This document shows positions 11,343 to 58,519 of a DNA stretch of 64,000 nucleotides, piece by piece. Numbering within the stretch: position 1 is the stretch's first letter; the number at the start of each line of letters is the position of its first letter. Source of the DNA: Chiloscyllium plagiosum (taxonomy: Eukaryota); NCBI RefSeq assembly GCF_004010195.1, contig NC_057758.1, forward strand, positions 83,872-147,871, written 5' to 3'. The notes below the pieces were generated by a model. The model made no database searches. It was not told where the DNA came from and saw nothing but the letters and a program-made list of their open reading frames with translations. Position numbers and translations under genes: made by a program.

Positions 11343-12636
11343 ATCACGAGGATGTGTCTGACAATAAAAGCATTGCACAACAGGATCAGGAGAAATGGGA
11401 AGGCTGGGGTGGGAATCGTGTAGACGAACGTGGTTGCTACCCAGAATGGTGAAACGTCAGCATACAATCTAGATTAGATTATCTACAGTATGGAAACAGA
11501 CCCTTCGGCCCAACAAGTCCACACCGATCCTCCGAAGAGTAACTCATGTAAATCTATTCTCCTACATTGACCCCTGACTAATGTACCAAACAATATGGGC
11601 AATTTAGCATGGCCAATTAAGCTAACCTGCACATCCGGATTGTAGGAGGAAACCAGAGCACCCCGCAGACACGGGGAGAATGTGCAAGCTCCACACAGTC
11701 ACACAAGGTGGGAATTGAACCTGGGACCCTGGCGCTGTGAGGCAGCAGTGCTAACCACTGAGCCACCGTACCGCCCAGACAAAACCGGGTTTGGTTCACC
11801 AGCACATGCCACTCTGTCAACTTTAAATACCAGAAAATGGTCTTTGAACAGCACAGCACAGTTACTGTACACAGATCCACAGCCACTGTTCCCGCATTTC
11901 AATATGTACTTTTCAGGTTCTGGCAACAGATGGCGACAAATCAGTCAAAGGTGAAAGCGACGGTGAACCAGACTGATCAGTCAGTTGCTGCATGGAGTAT
12001 AACAGTGTGGATGTTACACAGAGGAATGGGCTTCAGGAAATGCAAATTTTCTTTAAAAGTAATTGGAATGTGCCTCAAAGTCAGATCCAGAAGATGACCA
12101 GCATGTCAATTACTGCCATGGCGACCAGGTAATGGGTGATGCACGTCGAGAGACCGCAATTTCCTAAACACAGGATCACTATCGTCACTGGATTAGCTGT
12201 GTGGAAGGAAAACACGCAGGGACATCAGAAATCCCGTCAGACACAAAATAATAGTTTAACTCAGCACCAATTGACAGTATTAAATGTGCCTTCTTGCTTA
12301 GGTTATTATATTCAAATGGTCACACCCAGTACTGATCATGCACTTGGAGACAGCAATGGTCCTGGCAAACATCTATTGAGCATCAGGAAGTTGTAGAAAT
12401 GGGTTTTTGCACTGAACAACCAACTCAGATTTCGAAAAATAAAACATACCAGGGACACCAACAATATCGAGAATTGAATACAAATAAATTTGGGCAACTT
12501 CATGTAGAAATTGAACAGTAATGCAAGTTGGTAACTGATATCCAGAAAAATTGTTAAACAAGAATGGATGTATTTCTGTTGTTGTGACATTCCAATGAAT
12601 TGGCCTTGCATTCCATTTGCTCCCCTCCCTCGGCAT
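10995..12636 (-). pseudogene. GPR139-like GPCR pseudogene, copy 1 (proximal exon 1 at 12636-12450; exon 2 from 12196)
   Basis: Exon 2 starts ANPVTIVILCLGNCGLSTCITHYLVAMA after the acceptor TTCCTTCCACACAG, frameshifts near 12090, and is split by a SINE at 11470-11776. It retains RDPELENRRKSIV and LQLLSCCTTTGIYAVTQ. The upstream exon ends YSILDIVGVP-G|GTATGT. Confidence 0.88.
11470..11776 (-). mobile_element. tRNA-derived SINE (HE1/V-SINE type) inserted in GPCR copy 1 exon 2
   Basis: Minus-strand head GGCGGTACGGTGGCTCAGTGGTTAGCACTGCTGCCTCACAGCGCCAGG...GGTTCAATTCCC (A and B boxes) and a TCTAA tail. Confidence 0.9.
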
Positions 12637-13189
12637 CCATAGCTGACATCACGGCTCGTGGCGGAGGTGATATCCTCACTCATATCCTTACAACTCAGGG
12701 AAAACTCCACTCTCCGCTAATTTAAACCAGCAACAAGGAAATGATTCACTCCCGTGTGGTAATCTCTGTAAGTTCGAGAGGCCATGAACAATTTAAGGTA
12801 AAGACTAACAACTTTATTTCTGAAATTATAACAGAGAATGACTCACTAACAACGATTTACAACTCCTTCCTCGATCCCATCTTTTACTTACCCTTCTACA
12901 TTACAAGTCTGATAAAACCCCCGAGTAAGACTGACCATAAATTCAGATTTCAAAACCAGGCAGCTGTTGAATCTTCCCTTTGTATCTTCGTCTGTAGTTT
13001 ATATTGGATCTTGTTCAGAACACTTAATGCTGTCAGGTAGTTCTGACAGCTTTTAACTTTCCTCAAGGTACAGTATACTTCTATACCTTCATAACGATAT
13101 GCAGAGATAACACTTTGAGGGAAGCTTCCGATAACACAATCAGGGTCGGTGTTGACCTAAGGTCATTGACCATCACGTAGAGTCAACGA

Positions 13190-13950
13190 GACATAGAGAC
13201 ATACAGCACAGAAACAGACCGACAGTCCAACTCAACTATGTCGACCAGACATCCTAACCTAATCTAGTCCTATTTGCCACTCTGCCTCTGAATCCATCCT
13301 ATTCATGTCCCCATCCAGAATGCTGTATTGTGCCTGGCAGCTCATTCTATACAGGCACAGATCTCTGACTGAAAAAAGTTGTCCCTCAGATACCTTTTAA
13401 ATTTTCCCCACTTACTCTCGTCCTATGCCTTCTAGTTCTGGACTCCTAGACGCAAGGGCAAAGACATTGTCAATTTACGCTACCCATGCCGTTATTGACT
13501 GTATTGACCTCATAACGTCACCCCTTAGCCTCTGATGCTCCAGGGAAAACAGCCCCAGCTTATTCAGCTTCTCCCTACAGCTCACTCTAACCTTGGCAAC
13601 AAAACATTGTCAATCTTTTCTGAATACCTTCAAGTTCACAACGTCCTTCCTGTCTCACAGAGACCAGTATTGCACGCAAAATTCCAAAAGTGTCCTAACC
13701 AATTTTCTATAGAGTCGCAACATGACTTGCCAAATCCTATACACAATGCATTGACCAATGAAGGAATGCATAGCATTCACTTTCTTCACTATTCTGTGTA
13801 CCTGCGAATCCTCTTTGAAGGAACTATGAAGCTGCAGTTCAATGTTTCTTTGTTCAGTAATACTCCACAGAACCTTATTAGCACCTCAGATTGACCTGAA
13901 TTAAACTCTGTCTGACACTCCTCAGCCGACTGCACCATCGCAGCCCTAAT
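13190..13950 (-). mobile_element. Degenerate CR1-like LINE 3' fragment
   Basis: Similar to the reverse complement of 56850-57647. Confidence 0.7.
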
Positions 13951-14184
13951 TAAATCCTCTCTCCCTCTCCAACACATCTCCTACGTCAATGTAGTCAAAA
14001 ACAGAGCCAGTGTCGAGTGGTTTAGAGATTTACTGAGTGAAGGGGTAGAATGAATTGTCTAAGGGCCCCATGCAACTGTCCTGCTCTGGTCTCTGAATGA
14101 GGTCGGCTATTTGAAAGCAACGTTTAAGAAAAGAGGGTGGGCTGAGGGGAGAGCATGTTCTGGTGATATTATCATAGCCTCCCA

Positions 14185-16317: not shown

Positions 16318-16399
16318 CAGGTACAGCGAAGAGCAGGTAGTAGATCTGCCCGATCCTGAGGAGGACACGATACATCTCCAATTCAACACTTATTCCCAC
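16318..16399 (-). pseudogene. Distal first exon of GPCR copy 1, decayed (ATG to GTG, in-frame deletions)
   Basis: Translates (V)GISVELEMYRVLLRIGQIYYLLFAVP-G|GTGAGT and is paralogous to the intact exon at 31244-31148. Confidence 0.75.
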
Positions 16400-18538
16400 T
16401 TTCACGCTGCACCTTAAGATTTTATGTTCTCAGATTCCAATTCCTCCTCTCTGCCCTCTCTCTCTACCTCTTTCTCTGTCTTTCTGTCTGTCAGTCTGAC
16501 TTTCTCCTCACCTCTCTTTCTGTCCCTTCATCTCTCTCACTCTGTCTCTCTCCCTCTGTCTCACGTTCTCTGTCTATCTCCCTCTCCCTGTGTCTCTCTC
16601 TCTATTACAGTACATGATGCTGGGACTGACAGACTGTGCCGTGTTAAGCTCATATCAGAACACTTCAACACATGTTTTACATTTCTCCGTGGATATGTTG
16701 GTGAGTTGTCACTGTCACTTACAAATGGAACACATTGGTATTACGTAGCAGCCTCCTGTGCGTCACCATGTCAAAGACCTTATGGAAATCTGAATACATC
16801 ACGTCAACTGGCTCACATTTGTCTAACTCTCAAGAATCTCAACACTGTCCAGGACAAAGCAGCTCCCTCTATCGACATGCTCACGTGTCCCTTCATCTCT
16901 CAATCCAAAACATCACCATTTATCAGTGTTTACCATCTGTGAGGTGCAATGCAGAAATTCACAAAGGGTCTTGAGACAGCACCTTCTAAACTGATGAGAT
17001 GACCACCTTTAATGGCAATTCGAGCAGATATATGGGAACACCAGCCTCTACAAATTACCTTCCAATTCACTTGCTATCATGACTTGGAAATAGCTCGATT
17101 ATGCCTTCACTGTCACTTGGTCAAAATCATGGAGCTCCCTTCCTAACGGCACTGAGTGGCTCACCCCTCCATTCAGAAGGCACTGCAGTGGTTGGAGAAA
17201 GCAGATCACTACCACTGTTCTTGGAGGGTGAATGCTCAGGGTGCTCCGCATAGTCAGAGTGTACGCACTGAGGGGGCTTGGCACTGTCGGAGGGTCAGTG
17301 CTGAGGGAGCTCTGTAGTGTTTGAGAGTCAGTGCTGAGGGAGCTCTGCACTGTCAAACCAGGATTGTTGAGGACGCCCCACAGTGCGTGGACTCCGCACC
17401 ATCAGAATGCTAATACTGAGGGAGAACGCCGCAATTTTGGAGGGTTAGTGCTGAGGAAGGGAGAGAGGAACGGAGAGAATGGAGAGAAGCAACAGAGAGA
17501 CAGATAGAGCGGGAGCGAGATAGGACAGAGGAAGAGAGAGAAAGGGAGACAGAGAGACTGAAGCGGAGAAAAAGAGAGATTTCGGGAGAAATAAAGAGAA
17601 GTAAAAAGAGGGAGGGAGTGTCAGAGAGAGAGAGAAGTGGAGAGACAGAGACGTAGATGAAGAGACACAGAAATTGAGCGTGTCAGAGACAAGTAGTGAC
17701 AGAAGGAGGCCATCTGGGTTGTGCGTTTTTTGAACTGGTCCTCCTGGGAGCAGATGCGGCGGAGTCGAAGGAATTGGCAGAAAGCAGTGACAGAAATAGG
17801 ACTGGGTCCTTTGGTCCATTATATTTTTTGAGTTTAAAAACAATTTAGTGCCCTGTAAATCCCGCCTGAGAGTATCTGTGGTCTCCCAGCACCAAATGGA
17901 CTGTCACGATACAGGCAGTCAGCTCGCCATCACATTATCAGGGAATGGTCTGACCAGAAACACAAACATCCCATCAAGGATTAAATAACGGTAATCACGC
18001 GTTTCCAGTTTCCAATCACAAAGCATCCCTAAAATTACAGATGAAGGAACTTGAACATGAAATTTCAGACCGATGGGATCAGTCGTGATTTCTGTCGTGA
18101 TTGTCTGTAGTCAGCAATGAGGAAACATCTCCCTGAAGCTTTGTCGAGGTCACTTTTCGCGTCTACACAAATCACTCTGCCCCCTTCTTCAATGTCAACA
18201 TTTCTCTAGTTATTTGTCCGACTTCATGTTTCCCCTTTCTGTGTTTTTGCTCATTTCCCCAGTTTCAGATGCTAACAATATTCCAGTGCAGGGAACTCCA
18301 AAGCATTCATCAGGAGAGTCTCCTGGAATCCACGTTCTTCCCTTCCTCTGAATAGGATGCAATCAGTAAATAGCCCTTTTCATCGGTGCCACCTCTTGGC
18401 CTTCATAGCCCTATCATCTTCTAAAAGAGGTTTCACGGTTCTCACTCTGTGGTGGTCTTTTCACAAGAAATTTCACCATCCAATCTTCATCACGATCGTT
18501 AGATTCACACACGCAGAGCTTTGGTCCGTTCATTTCTA

Positions 18539-23605: not shown

Positions 23606-25047
23606 GAGTTTTACCAAGTCAGAATGGTCTTTTTGAGGAATGGAGTGGGAATGGTACTTGGAGAGGAACTTGCAGGGGGTTCGTCTGCTTCCACTCGTCC
23701 TTCTAGAGTGTAAGAGGAGTCGCGGTTCGAAGCTGCTCACATTTGAAGGAGACTTGGTGTTTTGCATAGATGGTACACATGCTGCCACTGTGCATCTGGT
23801 GGTTGTTCAGAGTGAGTGTTGAAGGTTGGTGTCAGCGCATCAAGCGAGTGGAGGGAGATGGAGCCTGTGTTGTTCTGGTAGTGGAGATATTCTCAAATGT
23901 GTGCGAGATGTTCAAAGAAATGATCGGAACATTTCTCCTTCATATTCAGTGGTGAAACCCATATTGTTTTCCCGCTCTATCTATATCTGGGGGGTCTCAT
24001 TGACAGGGATACTAGCCATCACCCGATTGACGTTTAGTGGTGTTTCCACACTGAATTCCCACCAGCAAGCCAACCTCCCCTCCTTCCCACAAAACCCACA
24101 AAATCAACATTCTGAGGGTTACCATTGGGAGAGAATCCAAACATCACCACTTAATGTTGAATGGTAAATGTTTAGGTTGTGAGGGGAAAGATTTAAATAG
24201 GATGAAAGGGACAACTTTATCATGGACAGCGTGGTGCCTGTATGGAATGAACTGCCAGAGAAGTGGTGGAGGCTGGTACATGACATCTGTTGGATATATG
24301 AATAGGAGGGGTTAGAGGGATATGGACTTAGGGCAGGCAAGTGGGATCCATTCACACAAAAGATAAACAAGTAAACAAACACATTTAATGAAGTTGAACT
24401 ATGTTGACATCTCACTCTTCAGAAAGTAAATTTATTGAGTTTGTGGAAGAGCAGAACTTTTGGAGCTGATACATTATTCAATGAGGCAAAATAGTCATTA
24501 CAACCTCGTCTTTAGGAATTTCTACCAAGTCTGGAATCGTTCTGTATAATGGAGAGGAGAATGAGGTTGACGCACTGTCAGAGCATCAGTCTCAGTTTCT
24601 GTGCCTCACGTTGTCTCTCTCTGTCTCCATCTCTATTTGATTTTTTCTCTTTCCTTTCTTTGCGATCTTCCCATCACTCCTTTTCTCTCTCTCGCTCACT
24701 CTGCCTCAATAGCACTGTCTTGCTTCTCTCCCTCACTCTCTCTCTCTGTCTGCCACTCTCATTCTGCTTTTCTATCTCTGTCTCTCTCCATGACTCTATT
24801 TCCGTCTCTCTTCCAATCTGCCTGGTTCTCTCCCATTCTTTCTTCCGGTTTCTGTCTTCCTCTAAACCCTTGCTCTCTCTTCCGCTCTCTATATCTATCT
24901 CCCATATCACCCTCTGTTTGTCTTTCTCTGCATGCCTCTCTGTCTCTCTTTGATCGAGGAACTGACCATAATGAGTGTCGATTATTAATCCGGGAAATGT
25001 CTATTGACTGTTCAGAATTATACGGAAAAATTGCCTTCTGATTTTTT

Positions 25048-25967
25048 TTAAATCTTCAGGTTTATTAATCGATAAATGATTTCACGGAGCATACATATGG
25101 GATATCTCAAGGCAATGATAAACTGTTTTCTGAACCTAGTCTGAGTCCCAGCATAAATGCCAGTGTTCGTGCAGCAACTCATCAACTGCAGTATGAAGCT
25201 TAATTCTATCACAAAACTGTGTAGGTACAACGTCTGGTAGCCCAACCAGTACATGCGGATCCATATAGAATAGAACATTAATAATGACCACAATAGCATG
25301 AAATTGGCTGAGATAAACAGCAATAAAATGATGGATTTTTTTCGGCTCTCCATCTCTGGGTCTCTGGGACTCTCCCCACTGCTGGGTACCTGGAGTCTCG
25401 CGCGGCCTCTGCTGGTCACGATAATATGCCTGACGGTGAGAACATTGCACAACAGGATTAGGATAAATGGTACACCGGGGGTGAAAATGTTGTAGACGAA
25501 CTCCATTGCTACCCAGATTGGTGAATTGATAGCGTAACGTCTAATCAGACAAAACCAGGGTTGGTTCACCAACACATACCACTCCGTCAACATGAAATAC
25601 CAGAACACGTTCTTCAAACAGCTCAGCACAGTCACTGTCCCGAGAACCATAGCTGCCGTTCTCTCATTGCAGTATTTAGTTTTCAGCTTCTGGCAACAAA
25701 TGGCCACAAATCGGTCAAAGGTGAAAGTGACTGTGAACCAGACTGAACAGTCAGTGGCTCCATAGAGCAGGACAGCATGTATATTACACAAGGGGATGGA
25801 CTCCAAGAAACGAAAGTGTTTAGTAAATGTAATTGGAATGTGCCTCAATATGAGATCGAGAATAGTAACCAGTAGGTCACTAACTGCCATGGCGACCAGG
25901 TAGCGGGTGGTGCATTTCGAGAGACCACAATTGCCCTGACACAGGATCACTATCGTCACAAGGTTAG
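25048..25967 (-). CDS. GPR139/GPR142-like orphan class A GPCR, copy 2, exon 2 (end of TM1 to C-terminus), reading frame intact
   Basis: Open 920-nt exon after the acceptor TTCCTTCCATGCAG: ANLVTIVIL...YLVAMAVSDLLV (TM2), TFDRFVAIC (DRY-like), TPGVPFILILLCN (TM5), KKSIILLLFISANF (TM6), SCCTNTGIY (TM7). Stop codon at 25050-25048. Confidence 0.9.
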
Positions 25968-26330
25968 CTGCATGGAAGGAAAACACAGAGGTACATCAGA
26001 AGTCCATTTGGACACGAGGCACTATTTAACTCACCATCAATTCACGGTCTTAAATGTACCAATTTGCCAATGTTATTATATTCAAATAATCGCACACATG
26101 AGTAATTATGCACTGGAGATTGGAATGGTCTCGACGCATCAACAGAAGACCAAAAAATCGGCAAATGTGTGACAGTTCAAAATGAGCATAGAATTCCAGT
26201 AAAAGTAAGGTGACAATAACAATATAGAAAATTGAATACCAACTAATTTCAGCAATTTCATGTTGAAAATGAATGGTAAGAAAAGCTGGCAACTGATAGG
26301 TCGATAGATTATTAAACAAGTGTGGATATA

Positions 26331-29020
26331 GAACAAAAACAAAGAAAATTTACTGCCCAGGAACAGACCCTTCGACCCTCCAAGCCTGAGCCGATCTAAA
26401 CCAGTCGCCCAATTCCTAAGCATCTGCATCCCTTTGCTTCTCACCTACCCATGCATCTGTCCAGACGCATCTTAAATGAATCTACTGTGCCTGCTTCTAC
26501 TACCTGTGCTGGCCAGGTGTTTCAGGCGCGTTCCACCCTCTGTTTGAAATACTTGCCGCGTGAATGCCCCTTAAACTTTTCACCTCTCACCTTGAAAGTG
26601 TGATCTGTTGTTATTGAATCCTTCACCCTGAGAGGAAAATCTTATCTCTATCTACCCTGTCCATGACCTTCATGATTATGTAGACCTCAATCAGTTCCCC
26701 CCTCAATCTCCTTTTTTTCCAGTGAAAACAAATCTAACCTACTCAACCTCACTTCATAGCTAGCACCTTCCATAGAGCAAAACATCCTCGTGAACCTTCT
26801 CTGCACCCTTTTCAAAGGATCCAAATCCTTTTGGTATGGTGGCATTCTAAATGTGGCCAAAACAATGTCTTGTACAATTTTAAAATGACCTGCCCGCTAT
26901 TATACTTAATCACCCGTCCGATGAAGGCAAGAATACCATATATCTTCTTGACCACTGTATCCACCTGTGCAGCAACCTTCAAGGGTACAATGGACCAGAA
27001 ATCCCAGATCTCTCTGCTCATCAACTTTTCCCAAGGCTCTTCCATTACTGTGCAATTCGCTCCAGAATTAGACTTCCCAAAACGCATCACCTCACATTTG
27101 CCTGGATTCAACTCCATCTGCCACTTCTCCACCCAACTTTCCAACCTATCTATATTCTCCTGTATTCTTTGACTGTTCCCTATGCTTTCTGCTACTCCAC
27201 CAATCTCCGCGTCATCTGCAATCTTGCTGATCATACCAACAGTGCCCTCTTCCAGATCATTTATGCATATCACAAACAAGATCACTGTGGCACACCATTG
27301 GCCAACTTTCTCCATTTCGACAAGCTCCCTTCAACTACTACTCTCTTTCCTGTTGCTCAATCTGTTCATTATCTACCGAGCTAGGACACTCTGTATACCA
27401 CCTGACTTCACTTTCTCCATTACTTTGCCATAGAGAACTTCATCAAACGCCTTACTAAAGTCCATGTATGTGACATCCACAGCCCTTCCTTCGTTTGTCA
27501 ATATAATCATTTCCTCAAATAACTCTATTATGTTGGTAATGCATGACCTCCCCCGCACAAAACCATGTTACCTATCACTGATAAGCCCATTCCTTTCCGA
27601 ATATATCTAGGTTTTATCCATCAGTGCCTTCTCAAGCAAACTTTCCCAACACTGTTATCAAGCTCACTGGTCTGTCATTAGCCGGAATATCCCTACTATG
27701 CATCTTGTACAGGTGGAAAGCACAGCAACCCTCCAATAGGCTGGCACCTCGCCTGTGCTTCAGGATGCTACCAAGATATCTGTCAGGGTCCCAGCTTTTT
27801 TTTCTCTCCAATCCTCAGCAACCTGGGATAGATCCCATCTGTTCCTGCGTAATTGTACTCATAAGTAACTTCTAACCTATCCAACACATATTCCATACGA
27901 ATGTCAACATGATCCAGAGTAACAAACTTCTGTCTCTAATGTCAACATTCATCATGACCCTCTTCTCGGTGAACATTGATGCAAAGTAACCAATCAGAAT
28001 CTCAGCAATTCTCTCAGGTTCAACATACAGCCTTCCTTCATTATCCTTTAGTGGACCAACCCTTTCTCTAGTTACCCACTTCCTTCTTATATAAGAATGA
28101 AATGCTTTGGGATTCTCCTTAATTCTGCTCGATAAAGCTATTTTGTGACCCCTTTTAGCCCGCTTGATTCCTCGTTTAAGACTGGCCCTACTCTCCCGAT
28201 ATTCCTCCAGGGCCCATTTTGTTCTTAGCTGCCTGGACTTTATGTACGCATCCCTTTCCCTCTTGGCTAGGGGAACGATTTCTCCTGTCATCCACGGTTC
28301 TTGAATCTTGCCATTCCTAACTTTTGCTTTCTACGGGACGTGCCTAACCTGCACTATCTTTAACCTATCTTTGAAAGCCTCCTACAAATGAAATGTGGAC
28401 TTCCCTTCAAATACCTGTGTCTAATCCACATTTCCCAACTCCTGCCTAATTTTGATATAATTGGCCTTCACCCAATTTAGTATTCTTCCATCGGGGCCAC
28501 TCTCATCTTTGTCTATGAGTATTCTAAAACTGACAGAATTGTGCTCACCATTCCCAAAGAAATCGCCCACTGCAACTTCTCCCACCTGGCCTGGCTCATT
28601 CATTAAACACCAGGTCCAATATGGTCACTTCCCTCATCAGACGATTGACATATTGCCCCAGAAAACTCGCCTGGACACTTCTTACAAATTCTGCACCAAA
28701 ACTCTGACACTATGCGTATCCCAGTCAATGCTATGAGCATTGAAATCTCCCATCACCACCACCCTGTTGCCTGTACATCTTTCCATAATCTGTTTACCTA
28801 TTTGTTCTTCTCCCTCATGCTCACTGTTGGGAGGCCTGTAATGCAGACCCAACAATGTAACTGTTCCCTTCTTTTTTCTCAGCTTCACCCATAGTGCCTC
28901 ACTACTCAAGCAGTCCATAATGTTCGCCTTTAGCACAGTCATGATATCATCCCTGACCAGCAATGAAACACCTCCCTCGTTTTACTTCCCTCCCTGTCCT
29001 TTCTGTAGCGTCTCAATCCT
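26331..29020 (-). mobile_element. About 2.7-kb 5'-truncated CR1-like LINE (endonuclease and RT remnants) inserted in the proximal first exon of GPCR copy 2
   Basis: APE motifs LGLHYRPPNS...[47 protein letters not shown]. The flanks rejoin into the exon seen uninterrupted at 46010-46198. Confidence 0.9.
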
Positions 29021-29224
29021 GGAAAATATCTGTTGTTGTGAGATTCCAATAAACTGGTCTTACGTTCCATCCGCTCCGCTGCCTACGCATCCGTAGCTTA
29101 CTTCCTCACTATTGTCAGAGGTGGCGTTCTCACGCACACTCAGAGATGACACTTTCAGAGAAGCTCCCCATAACATAATCAGGATCGATGGAGATCTACC
29201 ATCATTGACGATCACTTAGAATTA

Positions 29225-31147: not shown

Positions 31148-31244
31148 CAGGCACAGCAACAGCAGCGAGGAGCGGGTAGTAAATCTGCTCGATACTGATG
31201 AGGAAATCATACACCTGATTCTCAGTTTCGACGCTTATTCCCAT
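31148..31244 (-). CDS. GPR139-like GPCR copy 2, exon 1 (N-terminus and first half of TM1), intact
   Basis: Manual translation: aaaATGG context, MGISVETENQVYDFLISIEQIYYPLLAAVAVP-G, followed by a perfect GTAAGT donor. The exon is 97 nt (phase 1) and joins in frame to exon 2 (G|CT = Ala), giving 1017 nt, or 338 aa plus stop. Confidence 0.85.
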
Positions 31245-34880: not shown

Positions 34881-35614
34881 TGTAGTGAATGCCGGGTGAT
34901 TGAGAGTCTCAAAAAATCAGTGCAAATGGCCTGAGTGGAGAATGGACGGGCTGAGTAACAAGAGTCTGCAGATGACCAAGCGTGTCAGTGCGAGTCAATT
35001 GTCCACAGCTAAATAGTGAAGGGCCGACCTATCACCTTCAGGTCAGCGTCCTCCAAGGCGACCTTCGAGACGCGTGACAATGCAGACTCGCTGAGCAGGA
35101 ACGGATCGCCAAGCTCTGTCCCCATGAGGACGGCCTCAACCATGGTCTTGGGTTCATCTCGCTCTAAATATAAGTCCACTGCACTGTTCTGTGTAACACC
35201 TTCCTTCTCGTCCTGTTTTTGACGCCATGACATCGATAACTTGCTATTATCTCTCTTCCTTAATTAATGTGTGCTGTTCTTGATTGCTTGTTACTTTGTT
35301 CAGACTCTCAGCATGCGACTCTGATAGCTCCTCGTTATTGCAGACATTTGGTATGCCTCCAGCACCATTTTAATTAAAATAATTCTCTCTCCGCCTTAAT
35401 TAATTGAATCCTAGGTTCATAGATCATACTATTCGCACTTATATTTTGACACTATTAATTTGCTGAAATTATCTTGCCATGATCGATCTGTCCACTTGTA
35501 AGTTCCCTTACTATGCACTTCCTTCCACTTCAACTGACGAAGATGCAGCTCTCCAAAGGCTTGTAATTTCAAATAAGCCAGTTGGACTATAACTGGGTGT
35601 GGAGTGATTTCTGA

Positions 35615-36115
35615 CTTTAAACAGCTCAGCGCAGTCACTGTCCCCAGAACCACAGCTGCCAGTGCCTCAGTGCAATATTTCGTTTTCAGCTTCAGTCAAC
35701 AAATCAGTCTAAATTGTAAGAGACGGTGAATCAGACGGAGCGGTCAGGAGCACAATAGAGCAGGTCTTTCCCCTGGGATTGGAGAATAGGGTGAGCATGA
35801 CAGGGTAAAGGATTTAAAGGGACCTGAGGGACAATTGTTGCACGGATGGAATGAGATGCCAGAGGAATTGGTGGAGACTGGTACAGTTACAACATTTAAA
35901 AGACATCTGAATGGGGCATGAATAAGAAGGGTTGAGAGGAGCATATGCCAATTATTTTGTAAATGGGACTAGGTTATGTTGGTATGTCTGGTTGGCAAGA
36001 CCGAGTTATACCGAAGGGTCTGTTTCCATGCTGTACATCTCTATGGCTCTGTGACAGTGTGGACATTTCAAATGGGGATGGATACAGGAAGCGAAATGTC
36101 CTGAGCATTACCAAT
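35615..36115 (-). pseudogene. GPCR exon 2 relic (TM3-TM4 region), split by a LINE 3' fragment at about 35760-36050
   Basis: AAVVLGTVTALSCLKS and KLKTKYC-like sequence at 35617-35752. A weaker match to the ESIPLCNIH region lies at about 36052-36110. Confidence 0.7.
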
Positions 36116-40747: not shown

Positions 40748-41087
40748 AGTGGGGGTCAGCGCATCAATTGAATGGAGGGGTGGAGCCTGCTTTGTTCTGG
40801 TGGCGCAGAGATTCTCAAATGTGTCGGAGCAGATCGAAGAGATGACCGAAATATCTCTCCTTCATATTCAGTGGTGACACCCTTATTGTTTTCCCCACAC
40901 TATCACCATCCGGGGGGAGTGGGGGTCAGCGCATCAATTGAATGGAGGGGGTGGAGCCTGCTTTGTTCTGGTGGCGCAGAGATTCTCAAATGTGTAGGAG
41001 CAGATCGAAGAGATGACCGAAATATCTCTCCTTCATATCCAGTGGTGACACCCTTATTGTTTTCCCCACACTATCACCATCCGGGGG
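40748..41087. repeat. 170-bp near-identical tandem duplication
   Basis: AGTGGGGGTCAGCGCATCAATTG occurs at 40748 and 40918. Confidence 0.92.
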
Positions 41088-41707
41088 GTTCACATTGAGA
41101 GAGACACTAACCATAACCCGCTTGACATTTAGCGGTGTTTACAACACTGAAGTCACAGCACCTGGCCCCGCCCAACAAAATCAACATTCAGGGGGTTATC
41201 ACTGGGAGAGAATCCAAACATCACCACTTAGTGTTGAATGGTATCACCATCTCTGAATCACATGACTGTCATAATCGCGACCATTCATGGCTCCATAGGT
41301 ACTGTTATAGTGTGAATCCAAAAGTAGCTTGACCTGGACACAATATACATGCTTTGGGTCACAATTAGCAAAGGTTCTGTGGATTTTGGTCGCACAAAGA
41401 GACCTCGGGATGTTGATTAATCGTTCCTTAACATCGCAAGGACAGGACAGTGATGAACGTGATTAACTTTATTGATCAGCGCACTGAGTGTAAGAGTTGG
41501 GAGGTCATGCTGTGGCTATACAGAACATTGGCTAGGCCACTTTTAGAATATTGAACGCAGTTATAATTTCCCTCCTACAGGAAGGATGTTGTGAAACTTG
41601 AAAAGGTTCAGAAACGTTTTCAGAGAATGTTGCCAGGATTGCAGTTGTTGAGCTATATGGGGAGGATGAATAACCTGGAGTTGTTTTGCCTGCAGCGCCG
41701 TTGGCTG

Positions 41708-43065
41708 AGGGGTGACCTTAGAGATGTGTATAAAAATCATGACGCGAGTGCATAAGATAAGGTAACTCAAGGTCTGATCACTGGGGTGGGGTAGACCAGG
41801 ACTAGAGGGCAAATGTTTAAGTTGAGGGGGGAAAGATTTAAATGGAATGAAAGGGGCAACTTGATCATGGAAAGCGTAGTGCCTGTATGCAACGAACTGC
41901 CAGAGGAAGTGATGGAGGCTGGTACAGGGCAGTTGTTTGCGTATATGAATAGGAAGATTTAGATGGATATGGGCCATGTGCTGGAAAGTGGGATTCATTC
42001 ACACAAAACAAAACAAATAAACAAGCACATTTGATGAATGTGAATTGTGTTGACATCTCACTCTTTGGAAAGTAAATTTATTGAGCTTGTGGAAGAACAG
42101 AACCTTTGGAGATGATACAATATTCAATGAGGCAAAGAAGACATTACAACACGTCGTTAGGAATTCTCTATCAAGTTGGAATCATTCTGTAGAATGGAGA
42201 GGAAAATGAGGTTGGCACACTGTCAGAGCCAATGTCTCAGTTTCCGTGTCTCACTCTGTCTCCCTCAGTCTCCATAACTCTTTAATTTTTCTCTTTCCTT
42301 TCCTCTTGATCTTCCCATCTCTCTTTTTCTCTCTCTGGCTCTCTCTGACTCAATGACACTGTCTCGCTTCTGTCTCTCTCTCTCTCTCAGGGGTGACCTT
42401 AGAGATGTGTATAAAAATCATGACGGGAGTGCATAAGATAAGGTAACTCAAGGTCTGATCACTGGAGTGGGGTAGACCAGGACTAGAGGGCAAATGTTTA
42501 GGTTGAGAGGGGAAAGATTTAAATGGAATGAAAGGGGCAACTTGATCATGGAAAGCGTAGTGCCTGTATGGAACGAACTGCCAGAGGAAGTGATGGAGGC
42601 TGGTACAGGGCAGTTGTTTGCGTATATGAATAGGAAGATTTAGATGGATATGGGCCATGTGCTGGAAAGTGGGATTCATTCACACAAAACAAATCAAATA
42701 AACAAGCACATTTGATGAATGTGAATTGTGTTGACATCTCACTCTTTGGAAAGTAAATTTATTGAGCTTGTGGAAGAGCAGAACCTTTGGAAATGATACA
42801 GTATTCAATGAGGCAAAAACGACATTACACCACGTCGTTAGGAATTCTCTATCAAGTTGGAATCATTCTGTAGAATGGAGAGGAAAATGAGGTTGGCACA
42901 CTGTCAGAGCCTCTGTCTCAGTTTCCGTGTCTCACTCTGTCTCCCTCAGTCTCCATCACTCTTTAATTTTTCTCTTTCCTTTCCTCTTGATCTTCCCATC
43001 TCTCTTTTTCTCTCTCTGGCTCTCTCTGACTCAATAACACTGTCTCGCTTCTGTCTCTCTCTCTC
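41708..43065. repeat. About 681-bp near-identical tandem duplication (LINE 3' end, unique sequence and CT tract)
   Basis: AGGGGTGACCTTAGAGATGTG occurs at 41708 and 42389. ORFs 41561..41998 and 42350..42679 are paired. Confidence 0.92.
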
Positions 43066-44830: not shown

Positions 44831-46198
44831 TTAGACTTCTGATTCTTTTTTAATCATCAGTTGTATTAATCGAGAAATTATTTCACGGAGCATTCCTATG
44901 GGATATCTCAAGGCAATTATAAACTGTTTTCTGAACCTAGTCTGAGTCACAGCATAAATCCCAGTATTAGTGCAGCAACTCAGCAACTGCAGTATGAAGT
45001 TTAATTTCATAACAAAAATGTGTAGTTACATCGTTTGCAGGTACAACCAGTGCATGCGGATCCATACGGAATAGAACATTAATAATGACCACAACAGAAC
45101 GAAATTGGCCGAGACAAACAGCAATAAAAGGATGGAATTTCTTCGGCTCACCATGTGTGGGTCTGTGGGACTCGCCCCACTGCTGAGTGCCCGGAGTCTC
45201 TTGCAGCCTCTGCTGGTCACGATAATGTGCCTGACAGTGAGAATATTGCACAACAGGATTAGGACGAATGGTATGCCAGGGGTAAGAATGCTGTAGACGA
45301 ACTCCATTCCTACCCAGAATGGCGAATTAATCGCATAGCGTCTAATCAGACAAAACCAGGGTTGGTTCACCAACACATACCACTCCGTCAACATGAAGTA
45401 CCAGAAAATGTTCTTTAAACAGCTCAGCACATTCACTGTCCCCAGAACCACAGCCGCCGTTCTCTCACTGCAGTATTTACTTTTCAGCTTCTGGCAACAA
45501 ATGGCAACAAATCGGTCAAAGGTGAAAGTGACAGTGAACCAGACTGAACAGTCAGTAGCTGCATAGAGCAGGACAGCATGGATATTACACAAGGGGATGG
45601 ACTCCAAGAAATGAATGCGATCTTTAAAAGTAATTGGAATGTGCCTCAATATTAGATCGGGAACACTAACCAGTAGGTCACTAAATGACATGGCGACCAT
45701 GTAGCTGGTGATGCATTTAGAGAGACCACAATTTCCCTTACACAGGATCACTATCGTCACTAGGTTAGCTGTGTGGAAGGAAAACATAGAGGGATATCAG
45801 AAGTCCGTTTGGACACAAGGTAATAATTTAACTCATCATCAATTCACAGTCTTAAATGTGCCGTTTTGCAACTATTATATTTGAATGATAGCACCCATGA
45901 CTGATTATGCACTGGAGATCAGAATGGTCAGAAATTAAACATCAAAAAAGGATTTTAAAAAGCAGTAGAAGTGTTGTAGTGGAAATTGAGCATAGATTTC
46001 TAGTAAACGTAAAAGGGACACTAACAATATCAAAAATTGGAGTCCAATTGATTTGGACAAGTTCATACAGAAATTGAATGGTTAGCTAAGCTGGCAACTA
46101 TAGTTTGAAAGATGATTAAGCAAATGTGGAAATATGTCTGCTATTGTGACACTCCAATAAATTTGTCTTACATTCCATTCCCTCCTCTGTCTATGCAT
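44831..46198 (-). pseudogene. GPR139-like GPCR pseudogene, copy 4 (exon 2 at 45768-44831 with a single premature stop; decayed proximal exon at 46198 to about 46012)
   Basis: ORF 45026..45787 is closely similar to copy 2. TAC to TAA at 45028-45026, after which the frame continues LHIFVMKLNFILQLLSCCTNTGIYAVTQTRFRKQ to a TAA at 44833-44831. Confidence 0.88.
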
Positions 46199-46283: not shown

Positions 46284-46783
46284 NNNNNNNNNNNNNNNNN
46301 NNNNNNNNNNNNNNNNNNNNNNNNNNNNNNNNNNNNNNNNNNNNNNNNNNNNNNNNNNNNNNNNNNNNNNNNNNNNNNNNNNNNNNNNNNNNNNNNNNNN
46401 NNNNNNNNNNNNNNNNNNNNNNNNNNNNNNNNNNNNNNNNNNNNNNNNNNNNNNNNNNNNNNNNNNNNNNNNNNNNNNNNNNNNNNNNNNNNNNNNNNNN
46501 NNNNNNNNNNNNNNNNNNNNNNNNNNNNNNNNNNNNNNNNNNNNNNNNNNNNNNNNNNNNNNNNNNNNNNNNNNNNNNNNNNNNNNNNNNNNNNNNNNNN
46601 NNNNNNNNNNNNNNNNNNNNNNNNNNNNNNNNNNNNNNNNNNNNNNNNNNNNNNNNNNNNNNNNNNNNNNNNNNNNNNNNNNNNNNNNNNNNNNNNNNNN
46701 NNNNNNNNNNNNNNNNNNNNNNNNNNNNNNNNNNNNNNNNNNNNNNNNNNNNNNNNNNNNNNNNNNNNNNNNNNNNNNNNNNN
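46284..46783. other. Assembly gap (500 N)
   Basis: Run of N. Confidence 1.
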
Positions 46784-47430
46784 TGTGGTTTGTTTCCACT
46801 TGGATTGTGTGGAGTGGAAGTGAATGGGAGGGGCTTTGAGTCTATTGGGACTTTGGAGGTAGAGACTGAATTGAAAAGGGGTTTGTGTTCATTCAGATTA
46901 CGTGGAGTTTGGAGTGAACAGGAAAGGGGACTGGTTGCATTGGGATTGTGCAGAATGGGAGTGAATGGGAAGTGACTTGGGTCCATGGGGATTGCATTAA
47001 ATGGGATTGAACGGAAGTGGGTTTTAGTCCGATGGAATTGGTGTGAATGGGATGTGATTTCTGTCCATTGCGTTGGCATAGAGTGGGAGTGAGCGGGAAG
47101 GGGTTTGGGTCCATTAGAAATGTGCAGAATGGGAGTGAATGGGGATAGGTCTCGGATCATTTGGATTATATAGAATGGGAGTGAATGAGAAGGGGCTTCG
47201 GATCATTTCGATTATGTGGAATGGGAGTGATTGATAAGGGGTTTCGGATATTTGCATTATGTAGAATAAGAGTGAATGGGAAGGGGTTTCGGATCATTTG
47301 GTTTGTGTTGAGTGGGAATGGATTGGAAGGGTTTTGAGCCCTTTTGGATTGTGTGGAGCGGGACTGAACGGGAATGAGTTTTTGTCCGAATGGTATTGTG
47401 TAGCTTGCGAGTGAACTGGGAGGGGTCCGG
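46784..47430. repeat. G-rich satellite, about 45-bp unit, paralogous to 7885-8425
   Basis: Colinear match starting TTTGTTTCCA-TTGGATTGTGT. Confidence 0.85.
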
Positions 47431-50299: not shown

Positions 50300-52010
50300 T
50301 CATTTATGCTTCAGTCCTGCTAACGTGCGGAGGGTTTCCTGGAGGAGACTTACGGGATATCTCAGGACAATCGTACGCTGCTCCCTGAACGGCGCCTTAG
50401 TCACAGCATAAACCCCAGTGTTAGTACAGCAACTCAGAAGCTGCAGTATGAAGCTTAATTCCATCAGAAAAAAAAATGTATAGATACAGCATTTGGTAAC
50501 CAAAGCAGTACACGCGGATCCATATAGTGTACAACCTTACAACATCATTAAATTGGCCGAGATAGCCATTTGTAATATGATGGATTTCCTTTGGCTCTCC
50601 ATCTCTGAGTCTCTGGGACTCTCCCAAATTTCTGAGTGTCCTCCGGGCTCTGCTGATCATGGGGATGTTTCTCACCATCAAAGCATTGCACAACAGGATC
50701 AGGAGAAATGGGGCACCTGGGGTGCTGTAGATGAACTCGGTTGCAACCCAGAATGGTAAAATGCTCAGCGTGCAATCTAATCAGACAAAACTGGGGTTGG
50801 TTCACCAACACTTAGCACTCCGTCAATATGAAATGCTAGAGCATGTTCTTTGAGCTGCTCAGCACAGTTACTGTGCACAGAACCACAGCGGCCATTTCCT
50901 CTTTGCAATATGTACTTTTCAGCTCCTGGCAATAGATGGCGACAAATCGGTCAAGGGTGAAAGCGATGGCGAACCAGACTGAACAGTCAGTTGCTGCACA
51001 GAGTAGGACAGTGTGAATATTACACAGAGGAATGGAGTCCAGGAAATGAAAGTGCTCTGTAAAAGTAATTGAAATGTGCCTCAATATCAGATCGAAAAGA
51101 GTAACCAGTATGTCAGTTACTGCCGAAGCGACAAGGTAGTGGGTGATGCTCTTAGAGAGACTGCGATTTCCCTTGCACATGATCACAATCGTCACTCGGT
51201 TAGCTGTGTGGAAGGAAAACATACAGGGACATTAGAAATCCCGTCGGACACAGAATAATATTTTAACTCAGCACCAATTGACAGTTTTACATGTGTCTTC
51301 TTGCATTGGTTGTTATATTCAAATGATCACACCCAGTTCTGATCATGCACTTGGAGATGACAATGGTCTTGAAAAGCACAGCAGGTCAGGCAGCATCCCA
51401 GAAGCAGGAAAATCGACATCTCAGGCAAAAGCCTGCTCCTGCTCCTCGGATGCTGCCTGACCTGCTGTGCTTTTCAAGACCATTGCCATCTCCAAGTGCA
51501 TGATCAGAACTGGGTGTGACTGCAAGGACTGCAGGACTGCAGATGCTGGAAACAAGAGTCTAGATTAGAGTGGTGCTGGAAAAGCGCAGCAGGTCAGGCA
51601 GCATCCCAGAAGCAAGAAAATCGACATCTCAGGCAAAAGCCTGCTCCTGCTCCTCGGATGCTGCCTGACCTGCTGCGCTTTTCCAGCACCACTCTAATCT
51701 AGACTCTTGTTTCCAGCATCTGCAGTCCTTGTTTTTACCACGACAATGATCCTGGCAAAAATTTGTAGAGAATCAGAAAGCTGTAGAAATGGGTTAGTTG
51801 CATAGAACAATCAGCTCTGATTTTGAAAAGAAAACACGTACCAGGGACACCAGCAACATCGAGAATTAGAAACAAATTAATTTGGACAAGTTGATGTAGA
51901 AATTGAACGGTAATACACGTTGGTAACCAATAGCTAGCAAGATGGTTAAACAAGAATGGATTGTGACATTCTGATAAATTGGCCTTACATTCCATTTGCT
52001 CCTCTCCCTC
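50300..52010 (-). pseudogene. GPR139-like GPCR pseudogene, copy 5 (exon 2 at 51203-50300; proximal exon ends at 51842)
   Basis: ANRVTIVIMCKGNRSLSKSITHYLVASAVTDILV...TLDRFVAIYC, followed by in-frame stops and frameshifts, then LQLLSCCTNTGVYAVTK. The upstream exon ends LILDVAGVP-G|GTACGT. Confidence 0.88.
51327..51729. repeat. Two consecutive long hairpins (72-nt and 74-nt arms) formed by a Penelope-type insertion
   Basis: 51327-51398 pairs with 51448-51519 (1 mismatch). 51533-51606 pairs with 51656-51729 (no mismatch seen). Confidence 0.9.
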
Positions 52011-52963
52011 TGCACCTGATTGTGTCATTGGTTTTTAATGTTTTCAATATACTAAATTCAAGTTTGATTGGAGTTTGGTGTTTTGGGTATAATTTAAACT
52101 GATTGGCCTAATTCAAGTTTGTTTTTGTCTCCAAGCAACCAGCTACTCTAGCTGCTGGACCAAACGGTTACATTGCATCTTGTTCAGAACACTTGGTGCT
52201 GTCAGGTAGTACTGCCAGCTTTTAACGTTCCTAAAGGTACAGTAGACTTCTACACCTTCACAACAATACTCAGAGATAACACTTTGAGGGAAGCTTTTGA
52301 TAACACAAGCAGGGTCGGAGGTGACCTAAGGGAATTGATCATCACGAAGAGTCAATGAGACATAGAGATCTACAGCACAGAAACAGAGCCTTCAGACATC
52401 CTAATCTAATTCAATCCTATTTGCCACCATTTGGCCCATCTCCCTCTGATTCCTTGTCGCTCAGATCCCTTTTAAATTCCCACTCCCCCCCACCTTACTC
52501 TCATCCTATGCCTTCTAGTTCTGTACTCCATGGCCTAAGTGGCCTAACCAATGACCTTCACAGTCACAAAATGACCTGCCAACTCCTGTACGCAATAAAG
52601 GAAAGCATAGGTCCTATGTACCTGCGACTTTACCTTGCAGGATCTATGAACCTGCAGTTCAAGATCTCTTTGTTCAGTAATTCAGTGTTTAAGTCCTGCC
52701 CTGATATGCCTTTCCAAAACTCAGCACCTCAGATTGATCTAAATTAATCTCTTTCTGACACTTCTCGGCCCACGACATCATCACAGCTCTAGTTCAATCC
52801 TCTCTCCCTCTCCAACACATCTCCTACCTCAATATAGTCGAAAACAGAGCCGGTTTAGAGTGGTTTAGGGAGTTACCGATCGAAAGGGTAGAGTGAGTTG
52901 TCTAAGGACCCCAGGCAACTATCCTGGTCTCTGAGTGAGGTCAGAGTATATTGTATATTCAAT

Positions 52964-53276
52964 ATTTAGTATATTGAAAACATTAAAAACCAATGACACA
53001 ATCAGATGCAGAGGGAGAGGAGCAAATGGAATGTAAGGCCAATTTATCAGAATGTCACAATCCATTCTTGTTTAACCATCTTGCTAGCTATTGGTTCCCA
53101 ATGTGTATTACTGTTCAATTTCAATGTCAACTTGTCCAAATTAATTTGTATCTAATTCTCGATGTTGCTGGTGTCCCTGGTACGTGTTTTTTTTTCGAAA
53201 TCAGAGCTGATTGTTCTATGCAACTAACCCATTTCTACAGCTTTCTGATTCTCTACAAATTTTTGCCAGGACCATT
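52964..53276 (+). repeat. Inverted duplicate of 51745-52057 (proximal GPCR exon 1 of copy 5)
   Basis: ORF 52993..53439 (+) repeats ORF 51735..52028 (-) almost residue for residue. Confidence 0.92.
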
Positions 53277-55498: not shown

Positions 55499-55578
55499 TG
55501 GGTACAGCAACAGCAGCAAGGAGCGGGTAGTAGATCGGCTCGATCCTGAGGAGGGCACGATACACCTCCACTTCAACA
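55499..55578 (-). pseudogene. Distal first exon of GPCR copy 5, disrupted by a LINE insertion
   Basis: VEVEVYRALLRIEPIYYPLLAAVAVP-A|GTGAGT. The 5' remainder resumes at about 57648-57662, beyond the LINE. Confidence 0.78.
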
Positions 55579-55579
55579 A

Positions 55580-57647
55580 ACATCCAGAGAAAGTATATAC
55601 CTGTCAGGGTGAAAGGGAAGGCTGGTAGGTATAGGGAACGCTGGATGACTGAAGAAATTGAGGGTTCGGTTAAGAAAAAGAAGGAAGTATATGTCAGGTA
55701 TAGACAGGATAGATCGAGTGAATCCTTAGAAGAGTATAAAGAAAGTAGGAGTATACTTAAGAGGGAAAACTGGAGGGTAAAAAGGGGACATGAGACAGCT
55801 TTGGCAAATAGAATTGAGGAGAATCCAAAGGGTTTTTACAAATATATTAAGGACAAAAGGGTAACTAGGGAAAGAATAGGGCCCCTCAAAGATCAGCAAG
55901 GTGGCCTTTGTGTGTAGCCACAGAAAATGGAGGAGATACTCACTGAATATTTTGCATCAGAATTTACTGTGGAAAAGAATATGGAATATATAGACCGTAG
56001 GGAAATAGATGGTGACATCTTGCAAAATGTCCAGATTACAGAGGAGGAAGTGCTGGATGTCTTGAAATGGCTAAAGGTGGATAAATCTCCAGGACCTGAT
56101 CAGGTGTACCCGAGAACTCTGTGGGAAGCTAGAGAAGTGATTGCTGGGCCTCTTGCTGAGATATTTGTATCATCGATAGTCACAGGTGAGGTGCCGGAAG
56201 ACTGGAGGGTTGCAAACGTGGTGTCACTGTTTAAGAAGGGTGGTAAAGACAAACCAGGGAACTATAGACCGGTGAGCCTGACCTCGGTGGTGGGCAAATT
56301 GTTGGAGGGAATCCTGATGGACAGGATGGACATGTATTTGGAAAGGCAAGGACTTATTAGGGATAGTCAACATGGCTTTGTGCGTGGGGAATCATGTCTC
56401 ACAAACTTGATTGAGTTTTTTGAAGAAGTATCAAAGAAGATTGATGAGGGCAGAGCAGTAGATGTGATCCATATGGACTTCAGTAAGGCGTTCGACAAGG
56501 TTCCCCATGGGAGACTGATTAGCAAGGTTAGATCTCATGGAATATAGGGAGAAGTAGTCATTTGGATACAGAACTGGCTCAAAGGTAGAAGACAGAGGGT
56601 GGTGGTGGAGGGTTGTTTTTCAGACTGGAGGCCTGAGACCAGTGGAGTGCCACAAGGATCGGTGCTGGGCCCTCTACTTTTTGTCATTTACATAAATGAT
56701 TTGGATGCGAGCATAAGAGGTAGAGTTAGTAAGCTTGCAGATGGCACCAAAATTGGAGGTGTAGTGGACACCGAAGAGGGTTACCTCAGATTACAACAGG
56801 ATCAGGACCAGATGGGCCAATGGGCTGAGAAGTGGCAGATGGAGTTTAATTCAGATAAATGCGAGGTGCTGCATTTTGGGAAAGCAAATCTTAGAAGGAC
56901 TTATACACTTAATGGTAAAGTCCTGGGGAGTGTTGCTCAACAAAGAGACCTTGGAGTGCAGGTTCATAGCTCCTTGAAAGAGGAGTCACAGATAGATAGG
57001 ATAGTGAAGGCAGCGTTTGGTATGCTTTCCTTTCTTTGATAGAGTACCGAGTACAGGAGTTGGGAGGTCATGTTGCGGCTGTACAGGACATTGGTTAGGC
57101 CACTGTTGGGATATTGTGTGCAATTCAGGTCTCCTTCCTATTGGAAAGATGTTGTGAAACTTGAAAGGATTCAGAAAAGATTTACAAGGATGTTGCCAGG
57201 GTTGGAGGGTTTAAACTATAGGGAGAGGCTGAACAGGCTGGGGCTGTTTTCTCTGGAGCGTCGAAGGCTGAGGGGTGACCTTATAGAGGATTACAGAATT
57301 ATGACGGGCATGGATATGATAAATATACACAGTCTTTTACCTGGGATCAGCGAGTCCAGAACTAGAGGGACATAGGTTGAGGGTGAGAGGGGCAAGATAT
57401 AAAAGAGACCTAAGGGGCAACTTTTTCACGCAGAGGGTGGTACGTGTATGGAATGAGCTGCCAGAGGATGTGGTGGAGGCTGGTACAATTGCAACATTTA
57501 AGAGGCATTTGGATGGGTATATGAATAGGAAGGGTTTGGAGGGATATGGGCCGGGTGCTGGCAGGTGGGACGAGATTGGGTTGGGATATCTGGTCGGCAT
57601 GGACAGGTTGGTCGGAAGTGTCTGCTTCCATGCTGTACATCTCTATA
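55580..57647 (+). mobile_element. Relatively young 5'-truncated CR1-like LINE (RT domain and 3' UTR), about 2.07 kb
   Basis: Four consecutive same-frame ORFs separated only by stop codons: [57 protein letters not shown]. Absent from the paralogous site near 16388. Confidence 0.95.
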
Positions 57648-58519
57648 ACTTATTCCCCAATTTCACGCTGCATCGTAAGAGTCAGTGTTCTCAGATTCCA
57701 ATTTCTCCTCTCTGTACCTCTCGCTCTGTCTTTCGGTCTTTCTGTCTGACTTTCCCCTCACCTCTCTTTCTGTACCTTCACCTCTCTCACTCTGTCTCTC
57801 TCCTTCTGTCTCACGTTTTTTCTGTCTATCTCCCTGTCCCTGTGTGTCTGTCTCTGTTACCGTACATGACGTTGGGACTGACAGACTGCGCTGTGTGAAG
57901 CTCATATCTGAACACCTGAGGACGTGTTTCACATTTCTCCGTGGATATGTTGGTGAGTCGTCACTGTCACTTACGAATGGCACACATCAGCATTTCGTAG
58001 CAGCCTCCTGTGCAGCACCATGTCAAAGACCTTCTGGAAATCCGAATAGATCACGTCAACTGGCTCACCGTTGTCTAACTCTCAACAATCGCAACACAGT
58101 CCAGGACAAAGCAGCCCCCTCCATCGACATGCTCACACGTCCCTTCATCACTCACTCCAAAACCATCACCGTTGAGCAGTGTTTACCATCTATGCAGAAA
58201 TTCACTGAGGGTCTTGAGACAGCACCTTCTAAACTGATGGGGTGTCAACCTTTAAATGCAAGGACAGCAGATACATGGGAACACCAGCCTCTGCAAATTA
58301 CCTTCCAATTCACTTGCTATCATGACTTGGAAATAGCTCGGTTATGAGTTCAGTGTCACTTGGTCAAAATCATGGAGCTCCCTTCCTCACGGCACTGAGT
58401 GGCTCACCCCTCCATTCATAGGGCACTGCAGTGGTTGGAGAATGCAGGTCACTACCACTGTCCTTGGAGGGTTAATGCTTCGGCCGCTCTGCATCGTCAG
58501 AGTATCTGCACTGATTGGC

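Follow-up and report, generated by a model that had tools for sequence, protein, structure and literature searches.

Layout of the four receptor units

The 64,000-nt stretch of Chiloscyllium plagiosum DNA analysed here (contig NC_057758.1; the window, to which all coordinates refer) contains a tandem array of four class A G protein-coupled receptor (GPCR) units, all on the minus strand and numbered 1 to 4 in window order. Matches to Pfam 7tm_1 reached 60.7, 49.6 and 35.8 bits for copies 2, 3 and 4, respectively, against a cut-off of 30.5. All four units comprised an exon 2 and a proximal exon 1 of a long type, whilst a distal exon 1 of a short type was found in three of them (copies 1, 2 and 4). 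Both types encode an N-terminus and half of the first transmembrane segment (TM1) and both end in phase 1 ahead of one acceptor, as had been proposed for three of the four units in a prediction made from the letters of the window (hereafter the original prediction). The five intact donors were all in phase 1 and the four acceptors all read CAG/CTAA, so that copies 1, 2 and 4 each presented two same-phase first exons before one shared exon, the arrangement by which variable-first-exon loci are recognized. The proximal introns measured 253, 237, 243 and 638 nt in copies 1 to 4, meaning that the predicted spacing of about 250 bp holds for copies 1–3 but not for copy 4; the distal introns of copies 1, 2 and 4 (4121, 5180 and 4295 nt) agreed with the predicted 4–5 kb. 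Nhmmer comparisons placed the likeness between proximal pieces far above chance (E 1e-10 to 1e-35), and distal coding pieces matched each other at E about 1e-13 to 1e-18. Several features are interrupted by long or short interspersed nuclear elements (LINEs and SINEs), those of the window being presumably CR1-like and HE1-type, respectively. The features of the array are as follows.

10445..12196, minus strand: copy 1 exon 2, a pseudogene with stops, a frameshift and a SINE insertion at about 11470-11776
10212-10780 / 10777-11345, minus strand: 3' end of copy 1 exon 2, duplicated
12450..12636, minus strand: copy 1 proximal long-type exon 1, open over 62 codons, with WNVTT, donor GTATGT and a degenerate TM1 motif
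16318..16399, minus strand: copy 1 distal short-type exon 1, GTG in place of the ATG of copy 2, donor GTGAGT
25048..25967, minus strand: copy 2 exon 2, the sole intact one, Pfam 7tm_1, from the second half of TM1 through the stop
26205..26330, minus strand: copy 2 proximal exon, 3' piece, donor lost
26331..29026, no strand assigned: LINE (reverse-transcriptase-like) insertion splitting the copy 2 proximal exon
29027..29090, minus strand: copy 2 proximal exon, 5' piece, with the WNLTT motif
31148..31244, minus strand: copy 2 distal short-type exon 1, intact, with ATG, 32 codons plus 1 nt, the canonical IYYP TM1 motif and donor GTAAGT
35614..35766, minus strand: decayed fragment (TM3 region) of a further family exon 2, upstream of the copy 2 distal exon
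44852..45768, minus strand: copy 3 exon 2, almost intact but for a premature stop at about 45026
46012..46198, minus strand: copy 3 proximal exon, with a 1-nt deletion, one stop and no donor, owing to the lesion shared with copy 2
46284..46783, no strand assigned: assembly gap (500 N), which would hold the copy 3 upstream region and any distal exon
50309..51203, minus strand: copy 4 exon 2, a pseudogene with stops and frameshifts
51842..52015 (5' end approximate), minus strand: copy 4 proximal exon, starting with GTG and frameshifted by a 17-nt deletion, donor GTACGT
53003..53180, plus strand: inverted duplicate of the copy 4 proximal exon, 96 % alike, with the same deletion
55499..55582, minus strand: copy 4 distal exon, 3' piece, with an intact GTGAGT donor
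about 57650..57715, minus strand: copy 4 distal exon, 5' piece, separated from the 3' piece by a LINE insertion, with TTG in place of the ATG of copy 2

All seven exon pieces named in the original prediction lay where it had placed them, and the WN(V/L)TT sequon it ascribed to copies 1 and 2 was present as WNVTT and WNLTT, respectively. Other parts of the description needed amendment. The proximal donors are indeed intact in copies 1 and 4 and lost in copies 2 and 3, but the copy 4 exon is put out of frame by its 17-nt deletion, which also takes out the WNVTT motif. The copy 2 distal exon is intact and that of copy 4 is split by a LINE, as described, but neither copy 1 nor copy 4 has a distal ATG, and the copy 1 distal exon carries two in-frame deletions, one of them within TM1. 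One distal exon would fall at the gap, but it belongs to the third unit rather than the fourth. Two features had been missed: the fifth, inverted proximal copy (53003-53180) and the exon 2 remnant at 35614-35766. The latter represents the same exon 2 segment as 25551-25767 and lies 4.4 kb upstream of the copy 2 distal exon; copies 1 and 4 yielded no such fragment at the corresponding position. The inverted duplication as a whole (51745-52057 / 52964-53276, 96.5 %) spans the copy 4 proximal exon and its donor, and its arms could pair in RNA. Contigs from two other DNA samples span the copy 2 distal exon with few differences.

A search with exon 2 matched 2121 protein clusters. Among the best 120 of these, 118 were named 'probable G-protein coupled receptor 139', all shark, whilst one bore another receptor name and one was unnamed; exon 2 identity to these 120 was 63–72 %, bar one at 48 %. 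This identity, together with the placement of the units among shark models on the exon 2 tree, assigns them to a shark GPR139-like expansion. The normal gene of this family is two coding exons joined in phase 1, in which exon 1 is either of a long WNVTT type or of a short type of about 32 aa. A phase-1 exon 1 ending in a TM1 half of the YYP..GVP type was found in the copy 2 distal exon, and all proximal exons were degenerate in this respect. The long type as seen in the homologues (P0001-P0316) contains a tandem 13–14-residue repeat with the WNVTT N-glycosylation sequon, present once to about six times in each model. The TM3 segment of exon 2 (25551-25767) had summed depths of 132,838 and 192,146 in two DNA contig sets, against 48–103 for the adjacent intron; this is similar to the LINE bins and, although depth is no copy number, suggests a very large family.

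Literature searches on GPR139 in sharks and cartilaginous fishes returned no paper on this family as judged by title or start of abstract, subscription papers being mostly outside their coverage, and nor did broader searches as judged by listing. Cartilaginous fishes have been described as relatively poor in GPCRs, in a paper whose main text does not name GPR139 (PMC8455134); the main text of a second paper is likewise without mention of it (PMC11979771), and a table in a third gives an 'Orphan 139-like' group, marked unclear (PMC5207463). With 2121 clusters matched and no shark paper found, the receptor family may matter more than the exon finding.

A single ancestral layout and the decay of the proximal exon

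Intron identity grouped the units into two pairs, (1,4) at 86.6 % and (2,3) at 78.6 %, with 66–73 % between the groups. The stretch between the two first exons was homologous in copies 1, 2 and 4, and the two-exon layout is therefore one ancestral arrangement that was copied, not three separate cases. Only copy 2 has a complete frame, and solely via its distal exon, which with exon 2 forms a frame of 338 aa to the stop across the 5180-nt intron. The proximal exon of copy 1, when spliced to its exon 2, meets a stop after 100 aa. Proximal donors are kept only in copies 1 and 4, both of which have a dead exon 2; as both donors persist only in these copies, no present unit can make both forms. None of the four units combined two intact first exons with an intact shared exon, the distal region of copy 3 falling in the gap. 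Copy 2 alone has an intact distal exon, the ATG of this exon being gone from both dead copies (1 and 4).

The two copies with the best exon 2 had been noted to lack the proximal donor. Both do lack it, but copy 3 has its premature stop, and copies 2 and 3 carry the same damaged donor region, which marks a single loss in their common ancestor. Given this shared lesion, we rejected two independent losses. Copies 2 and 3 were 91.5 % alike over the 5' half of exon 2, 78.5 % over the proximal exon with its upstream flank and 78.6 % over the intron. We considered the intact donors of copies 1 and 4 as a sign of selection and rejected this, since exon 2 and intron alike drift there (82–87 % identity); the chance of the copy 1 proximal exon remaining stop-free was 41 %. 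The predicted differential retention of the two exons among paralogues reduces to one donor loss in a live lineage and neutral decay in a dead one.

Selection was assessed by simple K80 reconstruction on the tree ((1,4),(2,3)), with exon 2 represented by its first 140 codons, as the ratio of non-synonymous to synonymous change (pN/pS). On the internal branch exon 2 displayed a pN/pS of 0.21 (p=6e-5), indicating purifying selection, and on the branch to copy 2 a pN/pS of 0.25 (p=5e-4); purifying selection on exon 2 of copy 2 thus outlasted the proximal donor. The proximal exon, at only 62 codons, gave 0.85 on the internal branch (4 synonymous and 13 non-synonymous changes; p=0.76) and on this oldest branch looks neutral. 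None of its five branches or ten pairwise comparisons displayed a significant non-synonymous deficit, a test for which 62 codons give little statistical power.

Comparison with the family revealed that the proximal exon is degenerate at conserved positions. The residue six before the exon end is Ala in 141 of 165 family exon ends and Asp or Tyr in none, yet is Asp in the proximal exons of copies 1, 3 and 4 and Tyr in that of copy 2. The IYYP motif is broken in all four proximal exons and kept by the copy 2 distal exon, which has the common family residue at the TM1 positions lost in the proximal ones. On a profile built from 75 long exons, which includes few close relatives of the window's lineage, the copy 1 proximal exon and two inferred ancestors scored 7.8, 6.3 and 1.8 bits, compared with 33.2 for the distal exon; 38 of the 75 long exons, scored held out with their close kin also removed, all reached at least 30.8 bits (median 72.5).

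First-exon types among shark receptors

We compared the window's exons with 202 homologue N-termini, taken from gene models that are mostly without known RNA support. The best matches of the proximal exon were long WNVTT types, and those of the distal exon were types of 32–34 residues from Pristiophorus and Heterodontus. That each finds its best matches in other sharks indicates that both types are old, and both occur across shark orders. Local duplication of one first exon from the other was accordingly rejected, given this distribution and the lack of similarity between the flanks of the two exons in the window.

An exon 2 tree (FastTree, 112 rows) was built from models with a family-type exon 1, P0002, P0006 and most of the distant or partial rows being excluded. 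The window's exon 2 copies fell in a group of 61 rows with 58 long-type models and one short-type model (support 93), whilst 12 of the 13 short-type rows belonged to another group, together with 23 long ones (support 86). We also compared exon 2 between pairs of models at a threshold of at least 85 % alike; 162 of 316 proteins had a family-type exon 1, giving 232 pairs from 91 models. A clear mismatch of long and short types was confined to one model, P0281 of Heptranchias perlo (XP_067836187.1), in five pairs. Twelve further mismatched pairs, involving P0093 and P0086, were set aside for doubtful N-termini; if counted, they raise the mismatched models from one to three of 91.

P0281 combines a long-type exon 1 with an exon 2 that is 97.6–100 % alike to those of short-type models. 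Its exon 1 shares 49 of 60 residues with that of the long-type P0102 and its exon 2 shares 296 of 299 with that of the short-type P0078, whereas P0102 and P0078 have merely 220 of 299 exon 2 residues in common. The contig given for each of the three is 7,838,046 bases long. On these comparisons P0281 appears to have the pattern of a long/short chimera of two neighbouring gene types, which may be real or an artefact of the gene predictor. P0281 and the short, truncated model P0282 (XP_067836163.1) have exon 2 sequences that are 100 % alike over 289 residues.

The last pair bears on the possibility that these are true alternative first exons, in which case the ancestral unit would have had two promoters and made a receptor with either a long glycosylated or a short N-terminus, its paralogues later keeping one each. 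P0281 and P0282 would fit this, but they are not named isoforms. Among 66 cluster members listed for 20 proteins, no isoform pair combined a long and a short family-type exon; three of the 66 were named isoforms, all of one long-type catshark gene, in which 15 residues resembling neither family type form the alternative N-terminus. A search of a large protein collection with the proximal and the distal exon returned nothing at E<=10 (one candidate each, a weak test), and a metagenome scan for loci with flanks gave 27 pattern matches, none of which was confirmed. Within the window, three units have both exons in phase with a single acceptor and no trace of a deleted exon 2 separates them, as alternative first exons would predict; yet no unit can now make both forms, no copy has kept a working long form, and the proximal exon combines neutral-like change on the internal branch with a degenerate TM1. 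We regard true alternative first exons as unlikely.

RNA reads for the copy 2 stretch came from two single-cell runs of one sample, X5 and X6, of which about 2 % and 6 % of the reads were used. X5 yielded 594 reads over 24900-31400, 557 of them at 90–95 % alike and mostly from repeats and paralogue-like parts of exon 2; none lay on either copy 2 first exon or across the 31148-25967 joint, and X6 gave no reads, with little power in either case. These reads are evidence neither way on the use of the first exons. Their silence on the distal exon, and the lack of a significant selection signal in it, would also fit a situation where neither visible exon serves copy 2, the distal exon being an unused orphan beside an unseen first exon, or copy 2 having just died. 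However, the distal exon is intact only beside the one intact exon 2, neither dead copy retains the distal ATG, and profile searches of the window gave no other family-type exon 1. We consider this very improbable.

Origin of the two-exon layout and comparison with known systems

The account that we favour, and hold to be probable though well short of certain, is that one first exon was replaced by another in a receptor cluster evolving by birth and death; we prefer this to a receptor switching between two functional forms. As all junctions share phase 1, any exon 1 is in frame with any exon 2, and an orphaned exon 1 could splice to the next gene. A deletion or unequal crossover may have removed the exon 2 of one gene, the exon 1 of which would then splice to the exon 2 of its neighbour. 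By such an event a short-type exon 1 would have been placed 2–4 kb upstream of a long-type gene and taken over, in a presumed order whereby the native long exon, seen today in its decayed state, decayed afterwards. The intron of about 250 nt and the position on the tree suggest that the long exon was the native partner, and the short exon would have come from a neighbour whose exon 2 was lost. This putative chimeric unit would then have been carried by tandem duplication, itself evident from the homologous stretches, into the copy 1/4 and copy 2/3 lineages. Copies 1 and 4 would have died as wholes, whilst the common ancestor of the other two lost its proximal donor, the stop in copy 3 being presumably a later gain. 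Today only copy 2 could make a receptor, in the single 338-aa form read from the distal exon. The 58:1 excess of long types around the window's exon 2 copies, the confinement of clear long/short mismatches to P0281 with its chimera-like pattern, and the decayed extra exon 2 upstream of the copy 2 distal exon count for replacement, alongside the sole open frame through the distal exon, the selection results and the degenerate state of the proximal exon.

Several observations weigh against replacement. Between the two first exons of copies 1, 2 and 4 we found no exon 2 remnant, acceptor intron or unique 3' flank, the interval being mostly LINE and SINE sequence. A clean deletion would leave no remnant, so that loss of the neighbour's exon 2 is the likelier mechanism but is not shown. 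On the exon 2 tree the types are interleaved, the short label needing nine changes for 13 short rows; exon 1 types are therefore not bound to exon 2 clades, albeit at modest support, and such interleaving is also expected of a two-exon design. The window's lineage forms a long branch on that tree, and the gene models assign a single exon 1 to each gene, even to one that has two. The ancestral proximal exon, as inferred, possesses an ATG, an uninterrupted frame and a donor, yet is far from the family profile. The four proximal copies together hold one in-frame stop against 3.3 expected under neutrality (P=0.13), and the proximal exon displayed a pN/pS of 0.49 on the branch to copy 2 and 0.66 on that to copy 3, neither significant; its 62 codons give low power to a claim of neutrality, and the distal exon itself carries no significant selection signal over 25–29 codons. 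Neutral drift of 0.2–0.3 changes per site leaves the proximal exon stop-free 20–29 % of the time. Finally, Asp at the same TM1 place also occurs in the short model P0282, which fell below the length filter of the 165-exon set. The interleaved types, the open ancestral frame with its ATG and donor, and the shortfall of stops would suit true alternative first exons.

A passing dual phase, in which both exons were spliced for a time after the capture, under weak constraint, until the donor was lost, would explain why the ancestral proximal exon had drifted yet was open, and also the one donor loss that came after. Judged by stops alone, however, neutral drift leaves a frame open often enough that nothing demands such a phase, and a product with a charged residue in TM1 would probably be impaired. 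We think it improbable.

As to the proposed ancestral unit with two isoforms, both exon types do precede one acceptor, each can be read in frame and both are real family N-termini; the use of both is weakly supported, the proximal exon having no selection signal and having lost TM1 residues. The original prediction named an orphan exon of a neighbouring gene as the outcome that would overturn it, and this fits better, but for the missing exon 2 remnant between the exons. A broader claim, that a variable-first-exon design operates across the long/short clade of shark GPR139-like receptors, each unit having an exon for an N-glycosylated repeat ectodomain and a short one between which the promoter chooses, and that the window is a late, decaying example, is in our judgement quite unlikely; the interleaving of types and the exon 2 shared by P0281 and P0282 would be its traces. 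If it held family-wide, it would amount to a protocadherin-like way to vary a GPCR ectodomain, surprising to specialists. If first-exon replacement is true, the window offers a clear snapshot of N-terminal exon swapping with the displaced exon still visible, a known process of modest interest, and one shared intron phase would let ectodomains move among receptor bodies.

Elsewhere in the window, a perforin-like gene at 3592-5387 (plus strand), with MACPF and C2 both above Pfam cut-offs, stands tail to tail with the receptor array. Its coding sequence is spread over several reading frames, making it probably a pseudogene. Five adjacent direct duplications of 170–1000 bases and 96–98 % identity (5279-7282, 10212-11345, 32300-33281, 40748-41088 and 41705-43065) are either recent duplications or alleles set side by side by the assembler. 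A tandem array with a period of about 33/66 bases occupies 58456-59374 and, on the minus strand, gives an open frame of 387 codons that encodes a repeated peptide, with a short piece of related sequence at 17221-17385. Degenerate satellite-like arrays were found at 82-1440, 5885-8430 and 46784-47424, the latter two being homologous 3' flanks of copies 1 and 4.

The nearest relatives of the window's receptors are the shark models named 'probable G-protein coupled receptor 139' in RefSeq/UniRef, from Heterodontus, Heptranchias, Pristiophorus, Scyliorhinus, Stegostoma, Rhincodon, Carcharodon, Mustelus and Chiloscyllium. In these the break after the ..YYP..GVP motif coincides with the window's exon junction and both N-terminal types are present; they differ in having one family-type exon 1 each, whereas the window's unit has two, its long exon being off-profile. 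Human GPR139 (PDB 7vug, 9m42), also a class A receptor, was the best match of solved structure by sequence, weak at only 27 bits (E 2.5e-5), so that the family name is a nearest-label annotation.

In variable-first-exon clusters such as UGT1A, the clustered protocadherins and plectin, the alternative exons are intact, conserved and expressed. The window resembles them in having several same-phase first exons before a shared downstream exon, but one of its two first exons has decayed, and it was the whole unit that was duplicated, not the first exon. Tandem families that evolve by birth and death form chimeric genes through deletion or unequal crossover. The window shares with these its tandem paralogues, many pseudogenes, a shared intron phase and the apparent Heptranchias chimera, and differs in that the displaced native exon stays within the new intron and has been copied with the unit.

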